Positions 7,647-38,679 of a stretch of DNA of 49,170 nucleotides are shown in pieces (within the stretch, counting starts at the first letter, position 1; each line of letters starts with the position of its first letter). The stretch is from Chiloscyllium plagiosum (taxonomy: Eukaryota). A program made the translations under genes and the position numbers. The stretch covers positions 3,487,407 to 3,536,576 of the forward strand of contig NC_057752.1 in assembly GCF_004010195.1 (NCBI RefSeq), in the 5' to 3' direction. The notes beneath the pieces were generated by a model. The model saw only the letters and a list, made by a program, of their open reading frames with translations, did no database searches and was not told the origin of the DNA.

Positions 7647-8155
7647 TCAAAATCTTAAGTGACTGCAAGAATCTTTCCTTTTGTTCATGTTACATGTGAA
7701 ATGAAGTTATAAGAAGCGCCCTCGTGCAGGAACAGCAGCAGGAAGTAAAGTTTGGAAACCTTGAGGTTCCATTGATGTTCTACTGGTGGCCTTGGAGACG
7801 GGGCAAGTTTTGTACAACAAACCAAAAGGTTTCAGTTTCATGTTCGCTGAACAGCATAACCATAGAATGGGAAAAAGTTCAGAGTTCGCCCCAGCCATTC
7901 CTGCTCATTTTGGATTTGCATGGCGATTGGGTAAGGATCAGATCAGGCTAGGCGTAAATCACTCTGTGAGTCCAGTAACCTGATGGTGCCCACTGTCAAA
8001 GCTAGAAGTCACACGACACCAGGTTATAGTCCAACAGGTTTGTCTGAAACCACAAGCTTTCGGAGCGTTGCTCCTTTGTCTTGACTTCACCTGACAAAGG
8101 AGCAGCGCTCCGAAAGCTTGTGGTTTCAGACAAACCTGTCGGACTATAACCTGGT

Positions 8156-8356
8156 CGGAGAAAGTGAGGACTACAGAGGCTGGAGATCAGAGTCAAGAGT
8201 GTGGCGCTGGAAAGGCACAGCAGGTCAGGCAGCATCCGAGGGGCAGGAGAATCGACGTTTCGGGCATAAGCCCTTCATTAGGAATGTGATGAAAGGGTTA
8301 TGCCTGAAACGTCGATTCTCCTCCTCAGATGCTGCCTGATCTGCTGTGCTTTTCCA
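8156..8356. mobile_element. Penelope-like fold-back element, family A, with a 15-bp TSD
   Basis: TSD ggactataacctggt at 8141-8155 and 8357-8371. Two oppositely oriented mutated hammerhead cores lie at about 8250-8315. Confidence 0.85.
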
Positions 8357-8379
8357 GGACTATAACCTGGTGTCGTGTT

Positions 8380-8692
8380 TTAGATTAGATTACTTACAGT
8401 GTGGAAACAGGCCCTTCGGCCCAACAAGTCCACACCGACCCGCCGAAGCGCAACCCACCCATACCCCTACATTTACCCCTTACCTAACACTACAGGCAAT
8501 TTAGCATGGCCAATTCACCTAACCTGCACATCTTTGGACTGTGGGAGGAAACCGGAGCACCCAGAGGAAACCCACGCAGACACGGGGAGAACGTGCAAAC
8601 TCCACACAGTCAGTCGCCTGAGGCGGGAATTGAACCCGGGTCTCTGGCGCTGTGAGGCAGCAGTGCTAACCACTGTGCCACCGTGCCACCCA
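8380..8692 (-). mobile_element. HE1-type SINE, full length
   Basis: tRNA head at the right end and (tagat)n tail at the left; possible short TSD cgtgtt. Confidence 0.95.
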
Positions 8693-8879
8693 CGTGTTCT
8701 AACATTGTCCACCCCAGTCCATCTGGCACCTCCCCATCATCACTGTCAAAGTGAATAGCATGTCACACTTTTAAGTCAAAAAGCTCTGAGTTCAAATCCC
8801 ACCTTAAAAACCCTGAAGTTGGTACATTTGCCCTTCAGCGTCACACTGAGGGAAGATGCTAAATAGCAATACAGTAATG

Positions 8880-9150
8880 ATCAAGGCATCTGCTTCTCTT
8901 AAACAATACTAGTCAAGGGTTAAATATTGCTCAGGGCACGAGGGATAACACCTCTGCTCTTCAAAATAGCGCTGTGGGATTTTCTTTTGACCTGAGAGAA
9001 AAGGCAGAGCCTAATTCAACATCCCATTGGGAAGACAACAATGCGGCACTCCTGTACTCTATCAGCATGAAGTTTTGCACTCAATTTCTGGAGACGGATT
9101 TGAGTTTATACTCTTCTGACTCAGACACATGTGTCACAGCTGAGACACCA
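8880..9150 (-). mobile_element. Deu-domain SINE (SacSINE1/AmnSINE-related) remnant
   Basis: aaatattgctcagggcac..ctgctcttcaaaatagcgctgtgggat..acctgagag resembles the reverse Deu domain, followed by a tRNA-like head. Confidence 0.6.
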
Positions 9151-9769
9151 TATGCCAATGCAGAGCATGTGGCATGTTTTAATTCATGCATACTTGAAAC
9201 ACAAAACTGCCTTTGCTTTCGTGCTTGCCATATGATTGATATTACCTGTATTATACACACACACCTATACATATTAATCAAATACACACATATATTTATA
9301 TTAAATCTGAAAGCCATCCTTCTTTGTCATTTTTTCCAACAAAGTCCCACCGAAGAATAATTCAGAAAAGGTTAACCCTTTTGAAAACAAACAATATGAT
9401 AAATAACGATTGACTGCTCATGAATTTAAGAGCAAACTTGACTGAGTTCCTGCTGATGTTCATAAATTGCTCAGTCATGGTTAATGATGTCACCAGAACC
9501 ATTTGATTGAATTACTGTCTAGAGACGTACTGTCAACCATCTGTTATCCCTTTAAGTACACAGCATTCATTAACTTTTTAAACACACAAACTTTCGAGAC
9601 AACTGATAGAAAACCCATGAGAAAGCTTGTGTAGTCATTAGTGGATGTGCAACTGAGTAGGTACAATATATTACATTTCTATGCTTTACAGTGGGCTCTT
9701 AATAGATTATGTGCACTTTTATGTATTTAAAGTCATGAAATAAAATTCCAGAAAATAAATATGCAAATG

Positions 9770-10010
9770 GACAATAGTATAATGGTTATTTTACTAGATT
9801 AGGAATCTAAAAGCCTCAACTAATTATCTGGAGATGTGAGTTTAAATCCCACTTTTGAAAATTGAGAATTTAAATTTCATTCATTAAGTGCGACATGAAT
9901 AGGACGGGTTTCCAGGGATATGGGCCAAATGGGACAAGATTAATTTAGGGTCTGGTCAGCGTGGATGAATTGAGCTGAAGGTCTGTTTCCTCGCTATATA
10001 TCTCTACAAC
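9770..10010 (+). mobile_element. Degenerate tRNA-like head followed by a CR1 3' tail
   Basis: gagtttaaatcccac B-box-like motif; ggatatgggccaaat..gaaggtctgtttcc tail. Confidence 0.55.
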
Positions 10011-10049
10011 TCAAAGTAACATTCATACCATGCATGTTCCAGGCAATCT

Positions 10050-11100
10050 CTGAATAGAATCCCTTGCGATTCAATGGCATCACCATCACTGAATCCCCCA
10101 TTATCCAACATCCTGGTCGTTACTACTGATGAGAAACTGAACTGGAACAGCCATATAAACACTGTGAATATAACAGCAAGTCAGAGGCTAAGAATTCTGA
10201 GGTGAGTAACTCACCTTCTGACTCCTGTCCACCATTCATAAGGCACAAGTCAGGAGTGTGGTGGAATACTCCCCACTTGCCTGGATGGGTGCAATTCCGA
10301 CAATACTCATGAACCTCAAACACCAATCAGGATAAAGCAGCCCAATCCATCACTTTCAACACTCATTCCACGTTAGAGCCCGGGTGTCTCTGGAAAAGGA
10401 GCACGCGGTGTCCACCGACACCCTGGAGTTGTTCTGGGAGAGGTGGGCACCACAGGGAGTGGAGTGCATCATTTCCCCCTCCAACTTTACGTTGGTTTAA
10501 TCCCTGCCCTCCCCTTCCCTGTTTGATCACACAGCATTGCCCTTTGATGTGAAGGGCACTGCTTGTCACTGGCCACTCGGGTGTTTCCTTTCTTCCTGGT
10601 GGTGGAAATTTGAATAAAGATTCGAGAACCTTGTGCCTTTTACTGTGTCCCACACCTGCACACACACAACATGGGTGCTGGGGAAACAATAAGCACTACC
10701 GCAGTTAGGCGGTAGTGTGGGGGGGAAAAAAAACACTCATTCCCTCCACCACCAGCTCAATGGCATCAGTGTGTACCATATAGAAAATGCATGGCAGTAA
10801 CTCTCCTCCCCTCCTTCCACAGCATCTTCCAAAGCCATGACCCTACTATCTAGAAGGATGATGGCACAGAGAAACAGGGGAACACTCCCACCTGCAACTT
10901 CCCCTCCAAGCCACTCACCATCCTAACTTGGATATATTGCTGTTCCTTTGTTGTTGCGAGGTCAAAATGCTGGAACTCTCTCCCTAACAGCACTGTAGGT
11001 ACGCTTATATCATGTGGACTTCAGCAGGTTAAGAGTTTGACTCTTTGCCATGTTATCAGGGGCAGTTAAGGAAGAGTAACAAACGCCCACATCCTGTGGA
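10050..11100 (+). mobile_element. CR1/Jockey-group LINE 3' fragment (distinct from HER1), interrupted by a Tx1-like insertion
   Basis: KAQVRSVVEYSPLAWM at about 10240-10288, a WNSLP-type motif at about 10970 and a 3' tail. The host resumes at 10732. Confidence 0.8.
10370..10731 (+). mobile_element. 5'-truncated L1/Tx1-like retrotransposon 3' end with a 12-bp TSD
   Basis: Frame 10372-10500 reads VRARVSLEKEHAVSTDTLELFWERWAPQGVECII..stop (Tx1-type ORF2 C-terminus, by recall). It has a polyA end and TSD aacactcattcc at 10358-10369 and 10732-10743. Confidence 0.8.
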
Positions 11101-11104
11101 AGAG

Positions 11105-11390
11105 CCAAGACAAGTCTAGAATAATATACTAGTGTCAATAAAGTAACCGTGAAATTACTAGATTCCTGTAGAAACCTGTCTGGTTTCTCAATGTCTGTTC
11201 GAGAAGGAAATCTGCTGTCACTGCACATGTGACTCCAGACCCTTAGAATAAGGCGGGACTTTTCACTATCCTCTGAGGTGGCCCAGCAAACCACTCGGTT
11301 TTATTTAACAAGGTGCCTCTCCTCTGCTTTCTCAACGACAATAAACAGTGGCCTTGCCAGTGATGTGCATGTGCAGCAAATGAGGGCATC
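11105..11390 (+). mobile_element. tRNA-headed SINE body and tail (same family as 4448 and 5330)
   Basis: gaaggaaatctgctgtc..catgtgactccagacc..cctctgaggtggcccagcaaaccactc, followed by the LINE-type tail. Confidence 0.55.
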
Positions 11391-11409
11391 CAGATATCAT
11401 GTGACCTTT

Positions 11410-11665
11410 TGGATGGTCAGAGGCTTTTTCCCCAGGGTTGACGTTTCAATGACAAGAGGGCACAGGTTCAAGGTGAGGGGGAGAAAGTTGAAGGGAGACG
11501 TGCAAGGGAGGTTCTTCACACAGAGAGTGGTAGGAGCCTGGAACACTGCCAGAAAAGTGGGTGGAAGCAGGCACGTTGGCAACATTGAAGAGGATGGTTA
11601 CATGAATACAGAGGGAATACAGGGAGATGGACCGAATAAGGGCAGAGGATTCTTTATCTAGTTTA
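11410..11665 (+). mobile_element. CR1 3' fragment
   Basis: TRGHRFKVRG..FFTQRVVGAWN. Confidence 0.85.
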
Positions 11666-12031
11666 AGAGTAAAAGATAACCTAATTTGTGACAGCTAGAA
11701 ATGCAATCTCTACGTGTGTAAACGTAAAGGTTTGAGAGCAAACGTGAGGTGGGGGGGGGGGGTCAACACTGACTAGGTCTTTGGAACAGTTAATATTGAC
11801 ACGACCACTGGTTACTGAAATATTAAAAAAATGAATGCTGGAGAAACTCTGTGGAGAGAGGTGATGTGGAGGAAGGCAAAAATCACATGACCAACGGTGT
11901 CATGTGACTTTTGACGTTGTGGAAAGAGAAACACAGTTAACATTTTGAGTCTGATGTGCCTGGTCTTCAGGACCCTGGTTGCTCTCCATGGTGCTGAATT
12001 CACAATTCAATGGCTTTCCCAGGAATCTATG

Positions 12032-12215
12032 ATTTGGCGATGCCGGTGTTGGACTGGGGTGTACAAAGTAAAAATCACACAACACCAGGTTATAATCCAA
12101 CAGGTTTATTTGGAAGCACTACCTTTCGGAGCGCTGATGAAGCAGCAGCGCTCCAAAAGCTAGTGCTTCCAAATAAACCTGTTGGATTATAACCTGGTAC
12201 CATGTGATTTTTAAT
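12032..12215. mobile_element. Penelope-like fold-back element, family B, with a 12-bp TSD
   Basis: Inverted arms around CTGATGA (12134-12140); TSD caggaatc(t/g)atg at 12020-12031 and 12216-12227. Confidence 0.85.
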
Positions 12216-12489
12216 CAGGAATCGATGGCATGTGAGGAAAATGCCACAGTGAGATTCCCACCAACCCTATTCGCAAAAGGTCCATGAAAATCAAGGATTT
12301 CTGGGCCAAAACTCAGGGGTCAACTTTCACATGCAATCTACCATAAACCAAAAGGATTTTGGAGCCAAAGATCATGCTTCAACTGTTACATGAGATTGAC
12401 TACTACTTGAGTATATACAGTACACATTTTAATATTTCTTTATGCAGTCAGTTAATTAATCTTTTTTCTCCACACTTCAAGGAAAGAAT

Positions 12490-12790
12490 GAAGAGGTTTT
12501 TTTAACACAGAGTGGGTTATTATGATCTGGAGTGCATTAGTCAGGGGAAATGTAGAGTAATAGGGGAGGGGATTGGGTGGGATACTCTTCGGAGGGTCAG
12601 TGTGGACCTTTGGGTCTGTAGGGATTCGATAAAAAAATTCTATAAATGTGCTGTCTGAAAGGGCAGTGGAAGGGGATTCAGTAGTAGCCTTCAATATATG
12701 CTTGAAATGGAATAACTATGGAGACGTGGGGAAAGAGGGAAGGCAAAAAGCCAGAGCACAATAATACAGCTTTCTGTGCTGTATGATGTT
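12490..12790 (+). mobile_element. Old CR1 3' remnant interrupted by an HE1 3' fragment (about 12527-12630)
   Basis: ttttaacacagagtgggttattatgatctgga..ctgtctgaaagggcagtgga flanks gtgcattagtcaggggaaat..ctgtagggattc. Confidence 0.6.
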
Positions 12791-12934
12791 GTGTTGTATT
12801 AGATGGCTTTCTCTTCCTTGCAACTAGCCATTCTCCTCCACCCAACCATCGCGAGGTCTTCATGTAAGCACATATGGGTCAATTTCCAGATCTCTTGTCA
12901 GCCAGGTACAAGCAATATGCAACAATAACTGTAG

Positions 12935-13075
12935 GGGAAAAGAAACCAGAAATTGTTGGATGCACTTAGCAGGTCAGCTGCCATCAATGGAGAGGAAAGC
13001 GGAGTTAGCATTTCAAGTCTGTTCTTTTTTTGTCGTTCCATTTCAGATTTTGAGCTTCTGCAGTGTTTTGCTTTG
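12935..13075. mobile_element. Degenerate Penelope-like terminal fold-back remnant, family C
   Basis: cagaaattgttggatgcacttagcaggtcag..gagttagcatttcaagtc resembles the copies at 20630 and 45145. Confidence 0.5.
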
Positions 13076-13639
13076 CCAAGGATGACATGAATGAATGAGT
13101 TAATAAAGAAAAGCCCAGCCGCCTGAGAGGTGGGGAACTGTGCAGTCTTTCCTGATGGGAGCTTTGTAGGCCAAATGCTTTGTCTCGTTTCTTTCTATCT
13201 TGTGAAATAGTCACCGCCCCTGCTAATTTCATCTCTCCCTTCCCTCCAGGACTGTCTCTGCAGTTCATATCAGGAGTGAAGCTGAGCTCTTATCAAATGG
13301 AAAGCTACCCTGCTCCATGCTGTCGCGTAATAATACCCTCTTATCAGTGCTTTGAAATCTCTGAGTCTTTTGATTTGATCATAGGTCATTTATGGAGCAC
13401 ATTACTGGAGGGAACTACTCAAAGAAATAAAAGTTAAAGCTCACACAGAAATGAATTCACTTTTTTTCTTGCAGCATGCAATAGCACAGAGAAACAGAGA
13501 GACCCCAAGACCATCCTTAAATGGAAATGGATCTTGAGACCCTGCTCGATAATTGAATTGCTCAGCCTCCGCACCTTCAGGGTTGGAAGTCAAATTCCAG
13601 CTTTAACCACTAAAGGTACCATGAACAGTGCTCCGAGAA

Positions 13640-13900
13640 ACACAATCAATCTTTCGCTATGGCGAAGGCAAGGATTATTCATCATTTAGCATTCCACTAT
13701 TGGTGACCATGCCTTCCATTGCCTGAGCCCCAAGCTCTGCAATCACCTCCCTGTACCTGTCTCCCACACGCTGCTCTGTAACTCCGGAAAGCTTACATCT
13801 ATGACCGAGCCTGAAAATCTCCCTGAGGCTCACTGTCGGACACTCAGGTGAACTGCCTTGAGATGGTGCATTAGACTGAAGGTGCTCCATAAATTAAGCT
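13640..13900 (+). mobile_element. L2-like LINE 3' remnant
   Basis: ggtgaccatgccttc..ccccaagctctgcaatcacctccct (G.RAFS...P.LWNSLP-like) and terminal aaggtgctccataaattaagctg. Confidence 0.55.
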
Positions 13901-13944
13901 GTTTAATTCATGAATTCTTGCTGCTGCCACTGCAGGTTCATTAT

Positions 13945-14272
13945 CTGTAGAGCTGCACAACACGGAAACAGGCCATTCGGCCCATCGCGTCTACACTAAC
14001 TTTCCGAAGAGCGTCCCACCCAGACTCACCCCCGCTCCCCTCTAAGCCAGCATTTCCCATGGCTAACTGGCACCTCCCTGAGGACTATGCGTAATTTAGC
14101 ATGGCTAACCCACCAGACCTGTGCATCTTTGGACTGTGGGAGGAAACCGGAGCACATCCACACAGACACAGGGAGAATGTGCAAACTCCACACACACAGT
14201 CACCCAAGGGTGGGCATCGAACCCGGGTCCCTGTCACTGTGAGGCAGCAGTGCTAGCCACTGTACCACCCCA
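13945..14272 (-). mobile_element. HE1-type SINE
   Basis: Reverse-complement tRNA head, central domain and HER1-like tail. Confidence 0.9.
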
Positions 14273-15694
14273 TGATGGGTAGGGCTTAAGTGATTTCCTA
14301 CCCATTAAACAGCAATAGACAGAACCCACCGAGTTGATCACACCTCCCAATCTCAATCTGCACCCTCCATCACTCAAAAGTCCTAATCCAGGCACGTGAA
14401 CTGGTAAAATTCATTCTTATGTTTCCGAGGAGGAAGGTAAGTCTGGAATTGGCTAGAAAGAAGATTTAGGATGTGGACAGTGACCAGGAACTGGATACTG
14501 ACCTGCAAGGTCTCCTTGAAAGATGTCTCATCATGATTTAGAACTTGTGGTTTCCAAAAATGCCATTAAGTTCTCTCCCTTGACTGTAATATTTATATTG
14601 CTTTTGGCATTCCCTCCTGTGGCTGCACAGATTTCACTGTTGTATTAACATCAAACAACTCGCAAAAGGTCAGCTTTATTTGTTAACTGTCGAGATAAAA
14701 GGCAGGAAATCCAAACTGGAAAAAATAAACTGCTGAAAAAATACAACCAGCCCTTCAGCGACTGAAAAGGGGAAAAAAACATGAAGTTGTTCACCCTTCC
14801 AAGAAAACACATGCGTCTCTTTCCGAATGTTGATGGTGCTGTTGTACAATTCCAATCCATTTTGGTTTCCATGTGTCATCAACTGCCCTCGAAATTTGAA
14901 CAGATTTGTTACAATCGAAAGACTAATGCTATGGACACAAGCTAGCTCTCAACTGAGATTGAAGTTTGAATGATTTGAGCAGCAGTTCAACAAGGCCACC
15001 ACCTTCTCTAGGGGCAACTAGGGACAGGGCAATAAATACTGGGTCCACATCCCCCAAATTAATTTTGAAAAAATGATACACTGCACTTTATGGGAGGGAC
15101 AGATGGATCATTTGGTCTGTCAAAGCCGTGCTAGTGGTTGGCTCCACGTAAACCTACCCGATCTATTCCCACTCATTCCCCACTCCGTTGAACATTCCTC
15201 TCTAAATCCCTAAGTGAAGAGTGCATGGACTCGGATTTAACAACTGCTTGTGGGATAGAGCGTCACAGTCCAAACACCCCATTGTGGAAAGTGTTCCCTT
15301 CAAGCCTTTCGGCTTCATCTTAAATTTCTGCCTTTAAAGTTGGGGAGAGCCATTGATGGTGTCGGGCTCCAACTTTGTCCATGTGGTTTCATGAGGGAGT
15401 CAGTCGAGGTGAGTCACATGGAGGAGATGAGAGCAGCAAAGATGGAGGAAAAGCTGCCACGTGATAATGGAGTCAGATTTATACAACACCTCGAATTGAA
15501 TGAAACATTCCAGCATGCACCACAAAGCGCTGTGTGAAATAAAACACGAGTCTCACAAGGCATTGTTAGGTCAGGCAACCAAATGTTTGGTCAAACTGGG
15601 AGATTTTTAAGACAGGTCTTCAAGAGGAAAGTGGGGCAGACAGGTGGAAAGGTGAAGGGAGGCAATTCGAGAGATCAAGGTGCAGGCAATTAAA

Positions 15695-16490
15695 ATTAGA
15701 ATCGCTGTCATGTGGAAACAAGCCCTTCAGCCCAACCAGTCCACACCGACCCTCGGGAGAGTATTCCAGCCAAACCCATTCCCCTACATTTACCCATGAC
15801 ACATGCACCTAACGTATACATCCCTGGACACTATGGGACAATTTCCCATGGCTAATCCACCCTAACCTGTACATCCCTGGACACTATGGGACAATTTAGC
15901 ATGGCCAATCCACCCTAACCTACACATTCTTGGACATTATGGGACAATTTAGTATGGCCAATCCACCCTAACCTGTCACATCCCTGGACATTATGGGACA
16001 ATTTAGCATGGCCAATCCACCCTAACCTACACATCCCTGGGCACTATGGGACAATTTAGCATGGCCAATCCACCCTAACCTGCACATCCCTCGGCACAAT
16101 GGGGCAATTTAGCGTGGCCAATCCACCCTAACCTGCACATCCCTGGGCACTATGGGGCAATTTAGCATGGCCGATCCACCCTAACCTGCACATCCCTGAA
16201 CACTATGGGGTAATTTAGCGTGGCCAATCCACCCTAACCTGCACATCCCTGAACACTATGGGTAATTTAGCATGGCCAATCCACCCTAACCTGCACATCC
16301 CTGAACACTATGGGTAATTTAGCATGGCTAATCCACCTTGACCTGCACATCTTTAGCTTGTGGGAGGAAACCAGAGCACCCAGAGGTAATCCACGCAGAC
16401 ACGAGGAGAATATGCAAACTCCACACAGACAGTTGCCAGAGGCTGGAATCGAACCCGGGTCCCTGGTGCGGTGAGGCACTGTGCTGCCCC
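15695..16490 (-). mobile_element. HE1-type SINE with an expanded internal tandem array
   Basis: Head at 16440-16490, tail at 15695-15790 and the array between them. Confidence 0.92.
15808..16351. repeat. Minisatellite of about 10 units of 52-54 bp
   Basis: Unit atttagcatggccaatccaccctaacctgcacatccctggacactatgggaca starts at 15841, 15894, 15947, 16001, 16054, 16107, 16160, 16213, 16265 and 16317. Confidence 0.97.
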
Positions 16491-19650: not shown

Positions 19651-20629
19651 CTACGCTCCATTGAAAAGTGTTGGTTCAGTCACCAAAATGTGTGATGCAG
19701 TGTGGTTCTGACCCACACGGGTCAAGAACATGTCAGGTTTGACACTAAGGGTCGGCCATCAGCAAATGGGCGATTATCCCGATCGAATGGCTCAGATCAT
19801 GTTGTACAACCTTGTTGTAATTGATTCCCATTTGCACGTGGGCGATCGGACATTGAACGGCTCCATGACAATGAGCGAACCAAAGTTCATTCTCCGGGCT
19901 CGTACATGGAGAATGGACCACCTCAGAATCACAGGCCCGAGAAGGACACCCAACACAAATCACCACCTTCAGAAGGGGAGGAGGGGGCCTCGAAGGACCA
20001 GAGACTGCAAGGCAGCGAAATGCAATTTAACTGAAAATACATTCTGATAACTGCTGCCCTCAGAAGCTGAGCAGTATTTACTCAAGTTGAAAAATGTGGT
20101 GCTGGAAAAACATAGCAGGTCAGGCAGCATCTGAGGAGCAGGCGTATTTACTCAAGGTTATCTTCAGGACTGCTCTCCCTGTGTGGTTTCATCCTGTTGA
20201 GGATCAAACACTTCTTTTGTGGCTAGTCTGCAGAACAGACTATCTATGTTCCCACATTCTCTCAGAGTACGGACACATCACACAGCTCAGTTTGAAACTA
20301 CATATCACCTCTGAAGAGCAACCTTTGATTCTGGAAGACACAAAAGGTCACAAGGTAAGTTCAGAACAAGGTGGCATTTTGGCTCATTTATTTGACATGG
20401 ACGAGCTGGGTCAAAGAGCCTGTGTCTGTGCTGTACATCTCTGACTCTTCCTTTGAAGATTACCAACTTCGCCATCATCCTACTGTGGAAGGGGCAGTCA
20501 AACCAACCTGCCCCTCACCAAGGGGTAGACGTGCTGCGACTAAGTGTTGGGATCGATCCCAACAGACTCGATTTGTCTCAATGTAAACTACAGGATTTCT
20601 ATCTGTTTTAAATCTATATCATTTATTGT

Positions 20630-20795
20630 TAAAGCCAAAAGAACTGTGGATGCTGGAAATCAGAAAGAGAAGTCGCTGGAAAAGCTCAGCAGGTCTGGCA
20701 GCATCTGTGAAGAGAAATCAGAATTAACGACTCGGGTCTGGTGAAGATTTCTCTCCACAGGTGCTGACAGACCTGCTGAGCTTTTCCAGCAATTT
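20630..20795. mobile_element. Penelope-like fold-back, family C
   Basis: gctggaaaagctcagcaggtctggcagca is mirrored by tgctgacagacctgctgagcttttccagc. Confidence 0.7.
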
Positions 20796-20852
20796 CCATC
20801 ACTTATTGCACGTTTGGGTTCCTGGGTTTTCTCTATGTCTGAAGTAAGTAAT

Positions 20853-21062
20853 TTTGAGGTGCCGGCGTTGGACTGGGGTAGACAATGTTAGAAGTCACAC
20901 AACACCAGGTTATAGTCCAACAGGTTCATTTGGAAGCACTTGCTATAAATTCTGTGTCTTATGATCCTGCCCCACTCGCTAACCGATGAAGGAGCAGCGC
21001 TCTGAAAGCTAGTGCTTCCAAATAAACCTGTTGGACTATAACCTGGTATTGAGTGATTTTTA
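20853..21062. mobile_element. Penelope-like fold-back, family B, with a 15-bp TSD
   Basis: Inverted arms; core ccgatga-a-ggagc-agc-gctct-gaaa-gcta at 20983-21011; TSD tctgaagtaa(g/a)taat at 20838-20852 and 21063-21077. Confidence 0.85.
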
Positions 21063-21136
21063 TCTGAAGTAAATAATGAACAGGCAGGCGTTTCTGTAGC
21101 GATGGTGGTTTCTTTTAAAGCTATTTTTGAGAAGGG

Positions 21137-21200
21137 CTGATGAAGGGCTTATGCCTGAAACATTGACTGTTTTGCTCCTTGGAAGCTGCCTGACCAGTGC
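21137..21200 (+). mobile_element. Family A Penelope-like terminal remnant with a hammerhead core
   Basis: CTGATGA-A-GGGC-TTAT-GCCT-GAAA-CATT. Confidence 0.7.
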
Positions 21201-21214
21201 TCCACTTTTCACCA

Positions 21215-21487
21215 CGTTTTTAAGCTGAGAGGAGAGAGATTTAAAAAGATCAAAAGAGGCACATGATTTTACACAGAGGGTGGTTCGCGTGTGGAATGAT
21301 CATCCTGAGGAAGTGGTGGATGTGGGTACACTTACAACGTTTTAAAGGTATTTGGATGGACGCATAAAGAGGAAAGATTTGGAGGGATATGGGCCAGGAG
21401 CAGGCAGGTGGGACGAGTTTGGTTTGGGATTATGGTTGGCATGGACTGGTTGGGCCGAAGGGTCTGTTTCTGTGCTGTAGGACTCTA
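21215..21487 (+). mobile_element. HER1/CR1 3' fragment
   Basis: cagagggtggttcgcgtgtggaatga.. followed by the CR1 tail. Confidence 0.88.
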
Positions 21488-25508: not shown

Positions 25509-28002
25509 TACTGGATTGAGTGCTGTGCAATGAGGCAGACTTGATAAGGGAGCTTAAGGTGAAGGAATCCTTAGGAGGCAGTGATCATAATATGATTGAA
25601 TTTACTCTGCAATTTGAGAGGGAGAAGATAGAATCAGAGGTAACCGTATTATAGCTGAATAAAGGCAACTACAGAGGCATGAGGTACAATTGATTGGGAG
25701 GAGAGCCTAGCAGGAAAGACAGTGGAACAGTAATGGCTGGCGTTTCTGGGAGTAACTCAGAAGACACAGAGATTCATGCCGAGAAAAAAGAAGCATGGTA
25801 CAGGGAGGGTGAGGCAACCATCCATGGCTGACGAGGGAAGTCAGGGGTAGTATAAAAGCAAAAGAGAAAAGAGTGGGGAAGAACAGTGGGAAACTAGAGG
25901 ATTGGGAAGCTTACAAAGACCAACTGAGGGCAACAAAGAAAGAAATAAGGGGGAGAAGATTAAGTATGAGGGTAAGCTAGCCAGTAATATAAAGGAAGAC
26001 TGTAAGAGTTTCTTTAGAGATATAAAGGGCAAAAGTGAGGCAAAGGTGGACACTGGGCCACTGGAAAATGATGCTGGAGAGATAGTAATGGGGAACAAGG
26101 AAATGGCTGAAGAACTGAATAATTACTTCATGTCAGTCTTCATGGTGGAAGACATGAGTAATATTCCAAACATTCAAGAGAGTGAGGGGACAGAGCTGAC
26201 TATGGTGGCCACCACCAAAGAGAAGGTGCTCGAAAAACTGAATGACCTGAAAGTGGATAAATCACCTGGACCAGATGGACTACACCCCAGAGTTCTAAAG
26301 GAGATATCTGAAGAGATAGTAGAGGAGTTAGTGGTGATCTTTCAGGAGTCACTAGAATCAGGAGGGTCCCAGAGGACTGGAAAATCACTAATGTGACATC
26401 CCTGCTTAAAAAGGGAGTAAGGCAAAAGATGGAAAATTACAGGCCGATTAGCCTAACCTCAGTTATGGGTAAGATTTTGGAATGCATTGTGAAGGATGAG
26501 ATTTCTGAATGCTTGGAAGTGTATGGTAAAATAGGGCAAAGTCAGCCTGGTTTCATCAAGGGGAGGTCATGCCTGACAAATCTGTTAGAATTCTTTGAGG
26601 AAATAACAAGCAGGTTAGACTCAGGAGAGTCAATGCACTTTATCTACCTGGACTTCAAGAAGGTCTTTGGCAAGGTACCACAATGACTGAAAATGTGTTG
26701 CTGGAAAAGCGCAGCAGGTCAGGCAGCCTCCAAGGAACAGGAGAATCGACGTTTCGGGCATAAGCCCTACTTCAGGCTTATGCCCGAAAAGTCGATTCTC
26801 CTGTTCCTTGGAGGCTGCCTGACCTGCTGCGCTTTTCCAGCAACACATTTTCAGCTCTGATCTCCAGCATCTGCAGCCCTCACTTTCTCCTCGAAGAAGG
26901 TACCACAAGGAAGCTACTGAGTAAGATAAGGGCCCATGGTGTCAGAGGCAAGGTGCTGGCATGGATAGAAGCTTGGCTGTCTGGCAGAAAGCAGCGAGTA
27001 GGGATAAAAGGGTCCTTCTCAGGATGGCAGCCAGTGACGTGGTGCTCCACAAGGCTCAGCGTTGTGACCTCAACTTTTCACTTTATATATTAACGATCGA
27101 GATGAAGGAACTGAGGGCATTCTGGCTAAGTTTGCAAATGGTACAAAGATAGGTAGAGGGACAGGTAGCATTGAGGAGGCGGGGAGGCTGCAGAAGGATT
27201 TGAACGGGTTAGGAGAGTGGGCAAAGAAGTGGCCGATGAAATACAACGTGGGAAAGTGTGAGGTCATGCACCTTGGTAGGAAGAATAAAGGCCTGGGCTA
27301 TTTTCTAAATGGGGAGAGAATTCAGAAATCTGAAGTGCAAAGAGACTTGGGAGTTCTAGTCCAGGATTCCCTCAAGGTAAATTTGAAGATTGAATCAGTA
27401 GTTAGGAAGGCAAATACAATGATGGCATTTATTTTGAGAAGACTTGAATATAAAAGCAGGGATATACTTCTGAGGCTCGATAAGGCTCTGGTCAGACCAC
27501 ATTTAGAGAATTGAGAGCAGTTTTGGGTCCCATATCTCAGGAAGGATGTACAGGCCCTGGAGCGTGTCCAGAGACGGTTCACGAGAATGGTGCCAGGAAT
27601 GAAAGGATTAACATATGAGGAATGTTTGAGGACTCTGGGACTATACTCAATGTAGTTTAGAAGGATGAGGGGGGATCTGATTGAAACTTACAGAATACTG
27701 AATGGCCTGGACAGAGTGGATGTTGGGAAGAGTAAATGGAAGACCTTTTAGAATGAAGATAAGGAGAAACTTCTTCAGCCAGAGAGTGGTAAATCGATGG
27801 AATTCACTGCCACAGAAGGCGGTGGAGGCCCAGTCATTGAGGATATTTAAGACTGAGATAGATAGGTTCTTGATTGTAAAGGGGATCCAGGGTTACGAGG
27901 AGAGCGGGAGAATGCGGATGAGAAACTTATCAGCCATGATTGAATGGAGGAGCAGACTCGATGGGCTGAATGGCCTAATTTCTGCTCCTAGGTCTTATGG
28001 GC
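25509..28002 (+). mobile_element. Long CR1 ORF2 pseudogene fragment (end of endonuclease, RT, 3' tail)
   Basis: KSPGPDGLHPRVLKE, NYRPISLTSV, RSCLTNLLEFFE, YLDFKK, KCEVMHLG and FFSQRVVNRWNSLP, with many stops and frameshifts. Confidence 0.95.
26684..26896. mobile_element. Penelope-like fold-back, family A, with a perfect 12-bp TSD inside the CR1 RT
   Basis: 80-bp arms at 26687-26766 and 26775-26854 (1 mismatch); TSD aaggtaccacaa at 26672-26683 and 26897-26908. Confidence 0.9.
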
Positions 28003-31178: not shown

Positions 31179-31667
31179 GTTGTGGTATTGAATTGATGTT
31201 GTACTGTGAGTCTGCTGACATGGAGGAAGGCTTTTGGTGCAAAAGGACATCTGGTTTAATGTTGTTAGACTTTATCACCACACTGGCTGGGCAAATCCAC
31301 TCTCTGTAAGGACACGACATCACACCACGCTGTTTCACACTGGCGCATCAACCCCACACTAAATCGATTTCTCTTTCAACATAAATTTCAGAGTAGCCTC
31401 TCGGCATTTATGTTGCTGCATGCAAGGAATCGGATCGAATCTCCTCTTCAGGCAGACGCTGAGCTCCTCACCCTTTTCTGTTAAATCTTTCATGGCTTCC
31501 GTTTGTCATTGCTGAATTGCTTGTCAGTACGGGAATTATTAGAGACTTTATTGGATGAACTGTGTGACAATGCTGTCACTTTAAAAAGGTCATTTTGTCC
31601 TTGGTTGTTTTGAAGCGGGGTTGTAAAGGCAGAGGTGCCGAGGAATCTAGTTTAACAATGGAAGGGG

Positions 31668-31813
31668 GACAGATTAGAGTGGTGCTGGAAAAGCACAATA
31701 GGTCAGGCAGCATCCGAGGAGCAGGATTCTCCTGCTCCTCGGATGCTGCCTGACCTGCTGTGCTTTTCCAGCACCACTCTAATCTCCAGCAAGTGCAGGC
31801 CTCACTTTCGCCT
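31668..31813. mobile_element. Penelope-like fold-back, family A, ribozyme core deleted, 11-bp TSD
   Basis: 56-bp arms at 31671-31726 and 31730-31785 with a 3-nt loop; TSD aatggaagggg at 31657-31667 and 31814-31824. Confidence 0.88.
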
Positions 31814-31939
31814 AATGGAAGGGGAATAGCCGGTTTTCCCAGTTCAGGCTTTTTCTACTTTGTTTTTAGCTGCAGCAATCACGAGATATGTGAGTCCAGG
31901 GGAGTTGCAAGCTTTGATTTGCTCCGAAATCTATCTCTG

Positions 31940-32243
31940 GATTAGATTAGATTACATTACAGTGTGGAAACAGGCCCTTCGGCCCAACAAGTCCACACTG
32001 ACCCGCCGAAGCGCAACCCACCCATACCCCTACATTTACCCCTTACCTAACACTACGGACAATTTAGCATGGCCAATTCACCTGACCTGCACATCTTTGG
32101 ACTGTGGGAGGAAACCGGAGCACCCGGAGGAAACCCACGCAGACACGGGGAGAATGCGCAAACTCGCCTGAGGCGGGAATTGAACCCGGGTCTCAGGCGC
32201 TGTGAGGCAGCAGTGCTAACCACTGTGCCACCGTGCCGCCCAC
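31940..32243 (-). mobile_element. HE1-type SINE (very similar to the copy at 8380-8692)
   Basis: Same body as the 8380 copy apart from a short deletion after aaactc. Confidence 0.95.
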
Positions 32244-32574
32244 ACGGGCGTTGCTCCCTCCCACTGTAAGAATCTGTGTTTGAATTTACCATTTTGCCAA
32301 GGGGTGTGTTGACAGTATTGGCACAGTTAATTAGTACTGGTTACTGTATCAGGATCAGTTACGTTTTACAATAGCTAAGAAATTCTAAATTCCGCTTTCT
32401 TTCAACTGGAGTGTTTAAATAAATTCTGTTTTGCTTAAAGCCGAGTGGTTTGACCAGCTGCGTCACGCCTGGGGCACCCACTTCACATTTACCTTTAGAA
32501 ATAAGAAAAAGTTGGGCTCTAGGCTAGCTTCTTAAAATATTTTGAGGGGGGGGTCTGGTCTGGTCTAGTCCCAA

Positions 32575-32890
32575 GGGCGGCACGGTGGCTCAGTGGTTAG
32601 CACTTCTGCCTCACAGCACCAGGGACCCAGGTTCGATTCCAGCCTTGGGCCACTGTCTGTGTGGAGTTTGCGCATTCTCCCCGTGTCTGCGTGGGTGTCC
32701 TCCGGGTGCTCCGGTTTCCTCCCACAGTCCAAAGATGTGCAACGGTCAGGTGAATTGGCTGTGCTCAATTGCCCGTAGTATTAGGTGCATTAGTCAGAGG
32801 GAAATGGGTCTGGGTGGGTTACTCTTTGGAGGGCCGGGGTGGACTGGTTGGGCCGAAGGGCCTGTTTCCACACTGTAGGGAATCGAATTG
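32575..32890 (+). mobile_element. HE1-type SINE
   Basis: gggcggcacggtggctcagtggttagc head and HER1-like tail. Confidence 0.95.
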
Positions 32891-33496
32891 AAATAGCAAC
32901 TGGCTCGATGGAGTCGAACAGTGGCCAGGAGATAAAAATTAAAAAATGCTGGAGATCACCAGTGGGTCAGACAGCATCCATGGGGGGAAGCTATAGATAT
33001 TGCAAGTAGTGAACTAATGTTGTAAAGTGTGAGGGGAGCTGGTACATTCAGAAGAGCAGAGACCGGGCTAACGTCACATTTATTTCTTCTTCCTCTCCCT
33101 CATCGAGTGCAGGGTCAAAGCAACAATGAACCAGCTGCTCCCTGCCACCACTTTAACTGGCTTCCTTGGGAATATTCAAGCAGTGCCAAGGCAGAAATCA
33201 CACAGTGCAAGTTTCAACCACTGGCTGTTTATCTACTCCTGCCAGTCATGTGCAATCCTGCTGAGTCGGCAATGTAAATATGGCTGATTGCACAGACAGC
33301 AAGGCTGCTTCCGAACTGCTTCTGGATCCAGTGGGTGTCGGAGCTGGAAAACTCAGAGACCGAGCAACATAATCCGGGGAATTCAAATTCAAGTCCTTGC
33401 CATTATTTCTTTTTAAGAAAGGTCAATCAAATCTAATATCTCTTAAGAAAAGAATAAGCATGTGCTTTCAGTTTGTTGTGAACTAAATCAATGATG

Positions 33497-34053
33497 TCAT
33501 AGTCTTACAGCACAGAAACAGACCCTTCGGTCCAACCCGTCCATGCCGACCAGATATCCCAACCCAATCTAGTCCCACCTGCCAGCACCCGGCCCATATT
33601 CCTCCAAACCCTTCCTATTCATATACCCATCCAGATGCCTTTTAAATATTGCAGTTGTGCCAGCCTCCACCACTTCCTCTGGCAGCTCATTCCATACACG
33701 TACCACCCTCTGCGTGAAAAAGTTAACCCTTAGGTTCCTTTTATATCTTTCCCCTCTCACCCTAAACCTATGCCCTCTAGTTCTGGACTCCCCCACCCCA
33801 GGGAAAAGACTTTGCCTATTTACCCTATCCATGCCCCTCATAATTTTATAAACCTCTATAAGGTCACCCCTCAGCCTCCGACGCTCCAGGTAAAACAGCC
33901 CCAGCCTGTTCAGCCTCTCCCTATAGCTCAAACCCTCCAACCCTGGCAACATCCTTGTAAATTCTTTCTGAACCCTTTCAAGTTTCACAACATCTTTCCG
34001 ATAGGAAGGAGACCAGAATTGCACGCAATATTCCAACAGTGGCCTAACCAATG
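33497..34053 (-). mobile_element. HER1/CR1 3' fragment
   Basis: [29 protein letters not shown]. Confidence 0.95.
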
Positions 34054-34137
34054 TGACTAGATTGGGTTGGGATATCTGGTCAGCATGGATGGGTTGGACC
34101 GAAGGGTCTGCTTCCGTGCTGTACATCTCTATGACTC
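34054..34137 (+). mobile_element. HER1 3' tail in opposite orientation, fused to the 5' truncation point of the previous copy
   Basis: gactagattgggttgggatatctgg..ctctatgactc. Confidence 0.85.
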
Positions 34138-34364
34138 GATATGGTCAGGCATGGCACTGCTAGTGCTGGACTTTGAAGCAGCCCCTATACCAGCTGGGGC
34201 TCTATCAGATCACCATTGGACCATGGACCACACTTTGAGAATCACTGTCCTAGCTGTCCCCTGAAGTGGGCTGGCAAAGCCAATTCGTTGTATCCAGCTC
34301 AACTAGGAATGGGAATGGGCACCACAGGTAGACAGGATGGTGATGAAGTCATTTGGCACACTCA

Positions 34365-34922
34365 CCTCATTGGTCAGAGTATTGAGTATAAGAGTTGGAA
34401 GGTCATGTTGCAGCTGTACAGGACATTGGTGAGGCCACTTTTGGAATACTGTGTGCAGTTCTGGTCGACCTGCTATCGGAAGGATATTATCAAATTGGAG
34501 AGGGTGCAGAAAAGATTTACAAGGATGTTACCAGGTCTGGAGAGTTTGAGTTGAAAGGAGAGGCTGGATAGGTTGGGAGTTTTTTTTTAACCCTGCAGCA
34601 TTGGAAGCTGAGGGGTGACTTTATAGAGGTTTATAAAATCATGAGGGGCGTGGATAGGGTGAACAGCAAAGGTCTTTTGATGTGGGTAGGGAAGTTAAAA
34701 ACTCGAGGGCATGGGTTTAAGGTGAGAGGAAAAAGATTTACAAGGGGCAAACCTTTCCACACAGAGGGCGGTTTGTGTGTGGAATGAGCTGCCAGAGGAA
34801 GTGGAAGTTACAATTACAACATTTAAAAGACATTTGGACGGGTACATGAATAGAGAAACCTGGTCAGCATGGACGAGTTGGACCGAAGGGTCTGTTTCTG
34901 TGCTGTATGAATCTGTGACTCT
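34365..34922 (+). mobile_element. HER1/CR1 3' fragment
   Basis: [32 protein letters not shown]. Confidence 0.92.
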
Positions 34923-35489
34923 CTTCATGCCTGTCATGACAACAGTGCCCAAATTCCAAGAATGTTTTTTTTAAACCATGAAAAATGCAACAGAATCCGG
35001 CTTATGCTGGAGTGACATCAGTATCCAAGAGACTTACAGACATATGATCACTTGAAACATAAGCGCATTTATCAAAATGTTTGTTTCTTTCAGGAACAAG
35101 AAACCTTTAAACATTGGTTTGCTGTTCATACAAAGTGCTACTGGGAATAAATGTCCAAACTGAAGCATCGCATTACCTGGAAGTGTTCTCACTTGACCTG
35201 CAGAAAGCTTTTGTGAATACATTTATTTTAACAAGTCTTCAAATTGTGATGATGCGATTATTTGCCAAAAGACAACAGTGAATAAATGAGATCTCAGCCC
35301 CACTATCAACTAACACTGTCTGACTTCTGCTTCAGTCAGTTAAAAAGCAGATTAATAACAAGTTGTTTTGCTATGGCTTGAGGCCTTAACATCTTGGTAA
35401 GTTCAAGAATGTGGCGCAAAAACTGACTTTGGTGACCAGAAGGACCACTTTATAGGGAGGACACATCGCAAGGTTTATGAGGGATCTGT

Positions 35490-35992
35490 TAGAGTCCTGC
35501 AGCATGGAAACAGACCCCTCAGTCCAACACGTCCATGCCAACCAAGTTTCTCAAACTAAACTAGGCCCATTTGCCTGTGTGTGGCCCATATCTCTCTAAA
35601 TCTTTCCTATTCACGTACCTGTCCAAGTGCCTTTTAAATGTTGTAATTGTACCTGCATCTACAACTTCCTCTGGCAGTTTATCCCACACACAAACCACCC
35701 TTTGCATGAAAATATTGCCCCTCAAGTCCCATTTAAATCTTTCCCCCTCACCTTAAACCTATGTCCTCTAGATGTGGACTCCCCTACCCCAGGAAAAACA
35801 ACTTTGCTGTTCATCTTATCTCTACCCCTCATGATTTTATAAACCTTGATAAGGTCACCCCTCAGCCTCTGACATTCCAGGGAAAAATGTCCCGGCCTAG
35901 TCAGCCTCTCCTTATAACTCAAGCCCGCAACGTGTCTGTAAACCTTTTCTGAACTCTTTCCAATTGAATAATATCTTTCCTCTAGCAGGGCG
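35490..35992 (-). mobile_element. HER1/CR1 3' fragment
   Basis: RLRGDLIKVYKIMRG..RGHRFKVRG. Confidence 0.9.
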
Positions 35993-37074
35993 TTAGTGAG
36001 TCAGGATTTTGTGCAAAAAGAGTTTTTGTGCACTCTGCACCCCCACACAATCTCCATCTATCTGCCAACCACAAGTGACGGTGTTGGTTCCTTATCAGGC
36101 AGGGAATATTCCTGAGGTGATCCTTGCTCAGGTCCAGGGAGGCAGATGGTTGCTGGTTTGGTGGTACTGAAATGGGGGAGAGTGAGGGATGGCATCAAGG
36201 TCTGGGGGGAGGGGGGGGGGGGAGAAGGCTGAGACTGAGGGGAGGTGACAGTGGATTTCAGGGTTATCCAAACCCTGGAGACCAAGGGGAATTTCCTGAT
36301 CAAAAGGGAGGGTCTGACAGTAGGGAAGGAAGCTCCTGGTCGCCAGAAGGTTGGGCTTAGTGATCAAGGGAGTAGCGAGCAAACCGCAGAGCTGGAGGGG
36401 CGATTGGTGACGGATGGGGGGAAAGCGGTCATGCTTGAGGGGCAACACTGCCTCCTCCAGGCCAAAAGGCGGGACTGTCAATCCAATTACCTTCCCAACG
36501 TTTCAGTCCTGACTTACATTTAGCGAACAGCTTTCCCAAGAGCCAGGAAACCAAGAGCTAAACATGGAAGTTGGATAAAAATCACGGCCTGCAGCTTTGT
36601 TCAAACATTTCAGTGACAGAGCCAGCTCCTTGGAGTGGGTGAGCTGCCTACCTCCCATTCTGCTCTCGTTAAAACTGAAAGTGGGATAGATTGCAAGGGG
36701 CAAAATCTCATCACACCTGAGGCCAAACCATCCATTTTCTGGGGCTTCAAGTCCATCGGCAGTAGATGGACACGCAGGCAGCCATCTTTGAAAGCTGACA
36801 ACGTCCTCATGAACACTCACTCTGGGACTCGACTGAAAGAGGCAGCACTGGGTAAATGCACCGGAACAGTGTTGGGTTTGAGATGAATGGGTGCCTTATA
36901 TGAAAGCTAGCTCCAGGGAGCTTCATAACTTGCCTCAGGGCCAAGGTGGGTCAGGCTTTCTGAATGCTTCCCAGTGACCCCTGCTCTCCATCACAGAGAA
37001 GAATGGAGGAGGACATCGCTTCAGGGGAGATCAAGGTTTCGTGAGATATCCCTACCTCGCCCACTAAAGAAAGA

Positions 37075-37990
37075 AGAAAGACCTGCATTTAGGTAGCGCT
37101 TTTCACTCTCACTGTCTCAAAGTGCTTTTCTGAAGTGTGGTCACTGTTCTGAGGTGGGAAACACAGCAGCACATTTGCACTTCACAGATTCCGAAAACAA
37201 CAATGTGATAGCGACCTGATAATCTGGCTTCAGTAATGTTGCTGATGAAGAAATATTAGTCACGACATCAGGGAGAGCCCCACTATTTTCATAGTCATAC
37301 AGCGTGGAAACAGACCCTTCAGCCCAACCACTCCATAATCCCAAACTAACCTAGTCCCACCTGCCTGCTCCTGGCCCATATCCTTCCAAACGTTTCCTAT
37401 TCATGTCCTTATCCAAATGTCTTTTACACATTGTAACTGCACCCACATCCACCACATCCTCTGGCAGTTCATTCCACACACGAGCCACCCTATGTCCAAA
37501 ACAGTTGCCCCTCATGTCCTTTTTAAATCTTTCTCCTCTCATCATAAAAATGTGCCCCCTAGTTTTGAACACCCCCAGCCTTGTTATTTCCCTTATCTGT
37601 GCCCCTCATGACTTTAAAAGGTCACCTCTCAATATCCTACGGCTCCAGTGAAAAAAGTCCCAGCCTATCCAGCTTCTCCTTATAACTCAAACCTTCCAGA
37701 CCTGGCAACATCCTGGTAAATCTCTTCTGAACCCTCTCCAGCTTCACAAAAAAAACCTTGCGATAGTGCGCTGCAGTCCTCTACATTCACCTGAGAGGGC
37801 TGACAGGCCTCAGTTTTGCCTAGGCCTCAGTTTAACATCAATGGAAAGGATAGCAAAAGTATGAGTGCAGCATTCCCTCAACACTGCACCACAGTATCAG
37901 CCTAGACTCAAGTGCTCTGGTCCTGGAGCTGGCTTTGAGCTCACAACCTTATGAATTATAAGCAAGAGTGCTATCAGTTGACATAGAGCA
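37075..37990 (-). mobile_element. Near full-length Deu-domain SINE split by a CR1 insertion
   Basis: 3' part at 37075-37290 (acctgcatttaggtagcgcttttca..gtggtcactgtt..acctgataatctg) and 5' part at 37770-37990 (cacctgagagggc..cctcagtttaac..agtgcagcattccctca, then a tRNA head). Confidence 0.7.
37290..37745 (-). mobile_element. HER1/CR1 3' fragment
   Basis: TRGHIF..RVARVWNELPEDVV. Confidence 0.9.
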
Positions 37991-38378
37991 CACGCCACTC
38001 CCAGACAACACACAGATTGACAAACTCAGGGAATGTCAAGTTCACACACCGTGGTCATCCACATTCTAAAACTGCCTGCCTTCAGTAGCACATTATTTCT
38101 ATTACTGCAGACTGATACAAGACACCTTCAACACTGACTCTGCTGGCTGACGGTCTTTCAGGACTGTGTCAATATTTGCAAGCAGTTTGTAACATTGTAC
38201 AGGCGCAATTACAAATCTCAAATTGCCCATCTCGACTTGCACATCAAGGGTGCCAACTAGGGCAAGGTACAGTGAAATTGTCAGAATTCATGGTTAATTC
38301 TTCTCCAGATCTCTGACTAAAGGCAGTTCTGATCCACAGTACCATGGCCACCATCATGGCTAGGACAAAGAGGTAGGT

Positions 38379-38562
38379 AGGCAAAAGTGAGGACTGCAGA
38401 TGCTGGAAACCAGAGTTTAAATCAGAGTGGTGCTGGAAAAGCACAGCAGGTCAGGCAGCATCCGAGCATTCCTGATGAAGGGGTTTTGCCCGAAACGTCG
38501 ATTTTCCTGCTCCTCGGATGCTGCCTGACCTGCTGTGCTTTTCCAGCACCGCTCTGATCTAA
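38379..38562. mobile_element. Penelope-like fold-back, family A, with a 14-bp TSD
   Basis: Inverted arms; TSD acaaagagg(t/c)aggt at 38365-38378 and 38563-38576. Confidence 0.88.
38468..38503 (+). ncRNA. Minimal type I hammerhead ribozyme motif
   Basis: CTGATGA (38472-38478), extra A, stem II GGG/CCC, GAAA (38492-38495), palindromic ACGT stem III and GUC cleavage triplet (38497-38499). Stem I is weak and activity is not shown. Confidence 0.65.
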
Positions 38563-38679
38563 ACAAAGAGGCAGGTGCTGAGTCGTAGAACACAATAGAA
38601 TCACAGAATTCCCTACAGTGCAGATAGTGATGATAGAGACTCTAATGTCTTTCTATCGCTTGGTTGACCTGGAATCTGC

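Follow-up and report, generated by a model that had tools for sequence, protein, structure and literature searches.

The 49,170-nucleotide stretch of Chiloscyllium plagiosum DNA analyzed here (contig NC_057752.1, positions 3,487,407 to 3,536,576 of the forward strand, referred to as the window) contains a series of short palindromic inserts that, judged by their sequence anatomy, are the ends of two families of a minimal-hammerhead Penelope-like element (PLE). The reading that we favor, with a probability of roughly 0.7, is that the inserts are 5′-truncated terminal modules of these families, each made up of a pseudo-LTR (long terminal repeat) end and a minimal hammerhead, that were inserted in trans by two-nick priming. 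Re-examination of the sequence bore out all six of the inserts listed in a first-pass annotation, at 8156, 12032, 20853, 26684, 31668 and 38379, and each was flanked by direct repeats of the length given there. The origin from the end of a Penelope-like element that had been proposed for them is likewise supported: a minimal type I hammerhead motif (as a sequence motif only), a tail at one end, an inverted 5′-truncated copy and a target-site duplication (TSD) of variable length are all present. The inserts had been treated as a single family of six, however, and a self-search of the window separated them into family A (8156, 26684, 31668 and 38379) and family B (12032 and 20853) and added three palindromes, at 2795-2902 (B), 8002-8740 (B) and 20629-20797 (diverged and A-like), for a total of 9 palindromes per 47,937 non-N bases. 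The self-search also found weaker family pieces at 21138 and 45172, and a solo family A copy with a TSD, a 57-bp arm, is present at 20087. The whole insert units span 108-213 bp without an open reading frame (ORF), and their inverted arms are genuine, with 80 nt at 99% identity in the 26684 insert and 56 nt at 96% in the 31668 insert.

At the borders of the inserts, the two TSD copies matched at 15/15 positions for 8156, 11/12 for 12032, 14/15 for 20853, 12/12 for 26684, 11/11 for 31668 and 13/14 for 38379. In a chance control consisting of random 146-213 bp intervals, with 3000 trials for each degree of border freedom, an 11-bp repeat with at most one mismatch was found in 0/3000 trials at exact borders, in 10/3000 when the borders were allowed to move by ±5, and in 27/3000 at ±10. 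The TSDs had been described as uniform; the range of 11-15 bp stands, but there is no fixed length (mean 12.7 over 10 copies, the six named inserts and 4 further ones). Their AT content is 63%, compared with 53% for the window. The 15-bp TSD of the 8156 insert duplicates a piece that is present singly in other family B copies, which provides an internal empty-site control, while a comparison of the 26684 site against another copy in the window gave no usable match.

Arm positions were numbered from the predicted hammerhead cut, with +1 as the first base after the cut (8253 on the 8156 arm), and are accurate to approximately 2-3 bases given microhomology and subfamily indels. The arm statistics cover 8 palindromes, or 16 arms, with the poorly mapping 20629 copy and the solos set apart. 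In all eight, one arm extends to the 3′ terminus of the family, as had been reported for the original six, and its partner falls 26-52 nt short of it (median 36); this 3′ excess of the long arm forms a tail at one end only. The long arms end at about +98 to +103 in family A and at +87 to +92 in family B, and the short arms at +46 to about +72 and at +51 to +54, respectively. The 5′ ends of the long and short arms lie at −33/−27 (8156), −19/−27 (26684), +1/+8 (31668) and +14/−33 (38379) in family A, and at −16/−27 (12032), −5/−67 (20853), +55/−19 (2795) and −39/−27 (8002) in family B. The central junctions of the eight palindromes are all different, and in five of them the short arm, which has no tail, reaches beyond the long arm by 8-74 nt on the 5′ side, so that in these five neither arm can have arisen by folding back and copying its partner. 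In the remaining three (8156, 31668 and 8002), the short arm falls entirely within the span of the long arm.

Because all eight junctions differ, and because the arms of five of the eight pairs are not mutual copies, the palindrome is likely to have been assembled at each insertion. This agrees with the earlier proposal that both staggered nicks were primed on the spot and that no fixed master of the miniature inverted-repeat transposable element (MITE) type was copied. The arms of the 26684 insert are 99% alike and match other inserts at 80-89%, and those of the 8002 copy are 97% alike and match other inserts at 79-86%; these shared subfamily letters indicate that both arms came from one subfamily. 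Junction microhomology amounted to 3 nt at 12032, 2 nt at 26684 and 2 nt at 31668, with none at 2795, the four other palindromes lacking the upstream sequence needed for a judgment.

The first-pass annotation had also placed the junctions near the ribozyme, which holds loosely, with arm 5′ ends spread over about −67 to +55 around the predicted cut, but they are not centered on the cut itself. Just 1 of the 16 arms starts within 2 nt of it, against a chance expectation of 0.65, and 12 of the 16 cross it. The ends lean toward the 5′ edge of the ribozyme, where six of the 16 fall in the 7-base interval from −27 to −33. The simulated p values for this cluster were 0.009 under a uniform model, 0.056 under a fitted normal and 0.021 under a length-driven model; length-driven truncation alone reproduced the observed cluster in 2% of the runs, and the paired tests are compatible with it.

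In both families the hammerhead motif lies on one strand. It is made up of two core boxes, a single additional base ahead of stem II, a first pair that is G-C and, at the position of helix III, a four-mer that is palindromic; stem II folds in family A. The minimal hammerheads of metazoan PLEs are described with the same core features (PMC4209133). Rfam returned no hammerhead match and 11 sub-threshold matches, mostly microRNA hairpins; a microRNA precursor was rejected as an identity, since all 11 were generic hairpins below the gathering score. When five arm pieces were folded as single strands, they did not surpass shuffled sequences (z-scores −0.3 to +1.4).

The insertion can be pictured in four steps, with the mobilizing PLE reverse transcriptase (RT)/GIY-YIG protein presumably encoded elsewhere and acting in trans. 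Two nicks would be made on opposite strands 11-15 bp apart; the spacing is given by the observed TSDs, and the enzyme is a putative one. Each 3′ end would then prime reverse transcription on an uncleaved or re-ligated RNA of one subfamily, at distal and proximal internal start sites approximately 35 nt apart, which would produce a long arm with the tail and a short arm without it; the arm ends are observed, and the priming is modeled on the anole PLE in vitro. Synthesis of both complementary DNAs (cDNAs) would end after about 35-130 nt, with a preference for the hammerhead's 5′ edge, and the two would be joined head to head via 0-3 nt of microhomology, a joining suggested by the observed junctions. 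Host repair would fill in the remainder, and extension from one nick alone would leave a solo arm with a TSD. Together, two-nick priming at separate start sites, early stops and end-joining would explain why the units have a TSD, a tail on one side, overlapping arms and a variable center.

Parts of this scheme have precedents. An inverted 5′-truncated copy together with a one-sided tail of 30-40 bp has been described for PLEs (PMC8557442; PMC3846280), as have TSDs of 8-10 bp (PMC3846280). The PLE protein studied in vitro, a predicted dimer, cuts both strands and extends them, prefers AT-rich targets and initiates at a pair of internal sites between which the genomic tail lies (PMC11167929). 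In the same paper the start is stated to lie 111-118 nt after the ATG and the cut 26 nt after it, which places the start at about +85 to +92. This interval matches the long-arm ends of family B, provided that the register is equal.

Four of 24 public sequencing runs were aligned to the non-palindromic stretch 8081-8286. The aligned contigs numbered 63,710 in run X1 and 69,661 in run X9; the A and B families are very abundant in both organisms, the contig counts giving no copy number. Of the 1,009 loose ends, 24 were listed, and of the 104 joints, 15; as contigs break within repeats, these do not represent a census. The biggest listed loose end is the tail terminus at 8157, with 1,568 contigs in X1 and 1,792 in X9 that run into AT-rich, unlike flanks (agreement 0.35), and the distal end of the family is accordingly fixed genome-wide. 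The listed 5′ loose ends at 8278, 8284 and 8285 (−25, −31 and −32) were each found in 330-450 contigs of X1 and 474-541 of X9, with long and unlike flanks (agreement 0.31-0.35), which suggests that many genomic copies are solos starting at the ribozyme's 5′ edge; these counts are inflated by edge effects, as the 8081-8286 reference stops at −33 and carries mismatches of its own near 8278. Twelve of the 15 listed joints connect opposite strands, and six of these link a position in the range +12 to +19 to one in the range −23 to −33. None of the listed opposite-strand joints was supported by more than 6 contigs per run or by more than one of 4,165 raw reads, and the predicted cut coincides with no fold-back joint or top loose end among those listed.

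Several observations weigh against insertion of PLE ends by two-nick priming. Neither a PLE protein gene nor, in six frames, a GIY-YIG-like motif was found in the window, and the two RVT_1 matches among 9 scanned frames read as relics of long interspersed nuclear elements (LINEs); since the inserts are stubs, the absence of an RT/GIY-YIG ORF is expected. Neither a 5′ stop at the ribozyme edge nor a palindromic product is described for PLE insertion in vitro in the available text of PMC11167929, and no empty orthologous site was seen for any insert. The 5′-edge clustering is modest (p 0.009-0.056), and the −27 to −33 interval was picked after looking at the data. The oldest-looking inserts, 8156, 12032 and 20853, have a within-insert identity of 89-90%, which is no higher than that between copies. 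Finally, the junction 8241/8285 (equivalent to 8242/8284; +13/−32) recurs in X1, X9 and X15, which come from three organisms, and in one read of X21, with a summed depth of 289.5 in X1 compared with 6.7-21 for long contigs. This junction is either common to several loci or old and orthologous.

The recurrence of the +13/−32 junction, together with a 38379 junction that lies within 1-2 nt of it, is what might be expected if most copies derived from fixed palindromic masters, either MITE-like or in the form of a palindromic RNA re-mobilized as a unit. We consider this very improbable, as no two of the eight junctions in the window are alike, the termini are asymmetric, the TSDs vary from 11 to 15 bp, and the contig and read support per opposite-strand joint is as low as stated above. 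An identity as MITEs was rejected on similar grounds: the terminal inverted repeats are uneven, one end being 26-52 nt longer in 8/8, and neither the internal sequence nor the TSD length is fixed. Variable, asymmetric junctions with microhomology are likewise predicted by a collapse after insertion, in which longer inverted insertions would have lost their centers by deletion between the arms. Long palindromes are unstable, which also speaks for such a collapse. Long inverted PLE structures exist (PMC3846280). The 20087 copy, however, is equally short, has an intact TSD and lacks an inverted partner, and at each listed position between −25 and −32 hundreds of contigs depart from the family sequence into unlike flanks; short solos with intact TSDs and these loose ends indicate that short truncation happens at insertion, and we hold collapse to be distinctly unlikely.

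Self-priming has been proposed for inverted PLE junctions (PMC3846280), and copying of one arm from the other, whether by fold-back self-priming, template switching or self-priming of an antisense RNA, would suit the three palindromes with a nested short arm. For the five non-nested pairs it would need a later deletion, which argues against it as the sole route, and overall we hold it to be quite unlikely. The least probable of the explanations weighed here, and one that we give hardly any credence, is the earlier suggestion that the template was a short 3′ RNA freed by hammerhead self-cleavage, with junctions set by the cut. The long arm of 31668 does start at +1, one listed skip joint (8185 to 8254, in a single X9 contig) lands at −1, and a circular, re-ligated template, as proposed in PMC4209133, would let the cDNA cross the cut. 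Twelve of the 16 arms, however, hold sequence 5′ of the cut, the frequency of ends at the cut is close to chance, and the listed top loose ends lie at −25, −31 and −32 and not at +1. Hammerhead-dead PLE RNA also inserts normally in vitro, RNA-seq in the anole revealed no ends at the cut (PMC11167929), and single minimal hammerheads showed no cleavage in vitro (PMC4209133). A template 5′ end defined by cleavage of the predicted hammerhead is not supported, and a linear 3′-fragment template is largely refuted. In RNA run X21, no pile-up of read beginnings or ends was present among those listed, this single-cell poly(A) library being poorly suited to show cleavage.

Within the two-nick priming scheme, a more specific arrangement may be envisaged, although we regard it as doubtful. 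The two RTs of a PLE dimer might move in train on one RNA, approximately 35-45 nt apart, and both stop at a fixed 5′ boundary. The stop would come when the leading RT, which makes the short arm, meets a boundary at −27 to −33 that may be a block formed by a bound protein, a splice boundary or the 5′ end of the RNA, and the trailing, tailed arm would then end at about +12 to +19. This arrangement fits the 38379 insert (long arm +14, short arm −33) and the six listed fold-back joints (+12 to +19 with −23 to −33). Three inserts in the window, however, have the opposite offset, the paired test was not significant (p 0.20), and it is not apparent from the contig joints on which arm the tail lies.

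In relation to the 5′ boundary, the only long family B upstream piece, at 20945-20980, looks by eye like the 3′ end of an intron that ends just before helix I, with a branch-point-like five-mer, a pyrimidine run and, in the 2795 copy, an AG, which the 8002 subfamily lacks. A 3′ splice site before helix I has been reported for D. virilis Penelope (PMC4209133). A candidate 3′ splice site at −33 was considered, the resemblance applying to the upstream piece of 20853 and 2795 and the AG being absent from the 8002 subfamily.

The architecture is a known one: the inserts are a short form of the described PLE insertion structure, and they are real and abundant. That inverted PLE termini had been published before was correctly noted in the first-pass annotation. 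Insertion units of endonuclease-positive PLEs (PMC3846280; PMC8557442) share the head-to-head inverted copies, the one-sided tail of 30-40 bp, the strong 5′ truncation and the short TSD. They differ from the units described here in that the latter are 108-213 bp without an ORF, have TSDs of 11-15 bp instead of the 8-10 bp found in rotifers, and occur as about 9 palindromes in 48 kb. Partial direct tandems, the arrangement of pseudo-LTR formation, were not found in the window. The Anolis Poseidon element PAc (PMC11167929) has in common with these inserts the nicking and extension of both strands, two starts that bound the tail, AT-rich targets and a dispensable cleavage. The PAc ORF starts inside the hammerhead, whereas the matching ATG frames here stop after 17 codons in family A and 8 in family B.

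The minimal hammerhead ribozymes of metazoan PLEs have the same core boxes, extra base, G-C pair, helix III and short helix I as the motif in the window (PMC4209133). They are mostly solitary motifs of truncated PLEs, Schistosoma has opposite-strand hammerhead pairs 100-700 bp apart, and the accessible text of that survey describes no shark families. Non-LTR retrozymes (bioRxiv 10.64898/2026.07.22.740005) are similarly non-autonomous, hammerhead-bearing, derived from PLE pseudo-LTRs and dispersed as monomers, and they have been reported in one chondrichthyan. They are defined as direct tandem arrays, in contrast to the inserts in the window, which are inverted pairs or solos. An identity as non-LTR retrozymes was rejected, as no direct tandem hammerhead array is present among the copies in the window.

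In LINE-1 twin priming, two primers from two nicks give rise to cDNAs that are joined by microhomology, and the TSD is kept. The LINE-1 cDNAs cover different parts of the RNA, which results in an inversion, whereas the cDNAs here would start approximately 35 nt apart and overlap, which results in a hairpin. No report of short palindromic PLE stubs in sharks was found in a literature search in which subscription journals and Repbase reports were poorly covered; the whale shark paper, in its available portion, names Penelope as present and nothing further (PMC8455134).

For PLEs, the steps of second-strand completion and the reason for the inverted ends are described as unvalidated (PMC11167929). 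With tens of thousands of units of 100-200 bp in one genome, each preserving both start sites, both stop points and the TSD, the models would become countable against each other, and if the in-train arrangement were true, these stubs would preserve, at the level of single bases, a fossil record of how PLEs integrate through two nicks in vivo.

Among the family A copies, the 8156 insert consists of a tailed long arm at 8156-8286 on the minus strand (−33 to +98), which contains the whole minimal hammerhead motif, and a short arm at 8287-8356 on the plus strand (about −27 to +46); its TSD copies at 8141-8155 (plus strand) and 8357-8371 are identical, and the left one is part of the host family B arm. 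The 26684 insert (26684-26896) has arms identical at 79/80 positions, a short one at 26684-26774 on the minus strand (about −27 to +65) and a long one at 26775-26896 on the plus strand (−19 to about +103), between TSDs at 26672-26683 and 26897-26908. The 31668 palindrome (31668-31813; TSDs 31657-31667 and 31814-31824) joins a short minus-strand arm at 31668-31724 (about +8 to +68) through 2 nt of microhomology to a long plus-strand arm at 31725-31813 (+1 to about +98), the only arm to start at the predicted cut. In the 38379 palindrome (38379-38562; TSDs 38365-38378 and 38563-38576), the long arm is at 38379-38466 on the minus strand (+14 to about +98) and the short arm at 38467-38562 on the plus strand (−33 to about +65-72), with the whole hammerhead motif at 38467-38505. 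The diverged A-like palindrome at 20629-20797 has an 11-bp TSD with one mismatch (20618-20628 and 20798-20808). The solo arm at 20087-20143 (minus strand, about +6 to +62) has neither a tail nor an inverted partner and is flanked by a perfect 13-bp TSD (20074-20086 and 20144-20156), while a diverged solo arm at 21138-21216 (plus strand, about −27 to +50) starts at the hammerhead core and has an uncertain TSD.

In family B, the 12032 palindrome (12032-12215; TSDs 12020-12031 and 12216-12227) has its long arm at 12032-12135 on the minus strand (about −16 to +89) and its short arm at 12136-12215 on the plus strand (about −27 to +53), with the 3-nt microhomology at the junction. The 20853 palindrome (20853-21062; TSDs 20838-20852 and 21063-21077) has a long minus-strand arm at 20853-20944 (−5 to +87) and a short plus-strand arm at 20945-21062 (about −67 to +51), which alone among the arms includes a long stretch of upstream sequence. 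The 2795 palindrome (2795-2902), which lies beyond the range covered by the first-pass annotation and has a 13-bp TSD at 2782-2794 and 2903-2915, combines a 33-nt long arm that is tail only (minus strand) with a 75-nt short arm (plus strand) that appears to be internally deleted. The host of the 8156 insert is a palindrome of subfamily B2 at 8002-8740, with its tail ending at 8740 and an 11-bp TSD (7991-8001 and 8741-8751) whose 11-mer occurs at just these two places in the window. Its short arm is at 8002-8080 on the minus strand, and its long arm, from 8081 on the plus strand, is broken by the 8156 insert and by a repeat at about 8379-8693, which we take to be similar to a short interspersed nuclear element (SINE). 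The 8002-8740 segment is thus a three-layer nest, in which the host arms are 97% alike compared with 90% for the younger 8156 insert; this hints at homogenization of the host arms or at two source RNAs for the 8156 insert.

In the public runs, a direct-tandem joint of 8285 to 8157 (129-base unit) was present in 12 contigs of X1 and 13 of X9, its intervening letters not being known, and opposite-strand joints at the tail end, 8157/8196 and 8157/8206, in 3-6 contigs. These joints possibly reflect the insertion of one copy within or beside another, or retrozyme-like dimers. At position 8187 in RNA run X21, T>C was seen in 218/848 reads of one orientation and 20/351 of the other, compared with approximately 1% in the DNA runs, which could reflect A-to-I editing of the hairpin or an expressed variant locus. 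RNA editing as the cause of the excess of A>G and T>C places (37/26 in X21 versus 20/13 in X1) was set aside, as most rarer changes rose too and the DNA compared is not from the same individual. The family motifs had no match in viral contigs or prokaryote genomes, and 61 metagenome matches, of at most 44 aligned bases, were taken as chance.

The remainder of the window is repeat-rich, vertebrate-type DNA. LINE-type RT relics are located at 25851-27700 and 45475-47320, corresponding to the two Pfam RVT_1 matches, and the first is broken within its RT region by the 26684 palindrome. Three N runs, with a total of 1,233 bases (2058-2153, 41676-42311 and 46219-46719), all lie within repeats, and none of them touches the inserts described here. 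A unit of 52-53 bp, which also forms part of the SINE-like family, is arrayed in tandem at 15703-16364 and at 41333-42541, the second array spanning an N gap.

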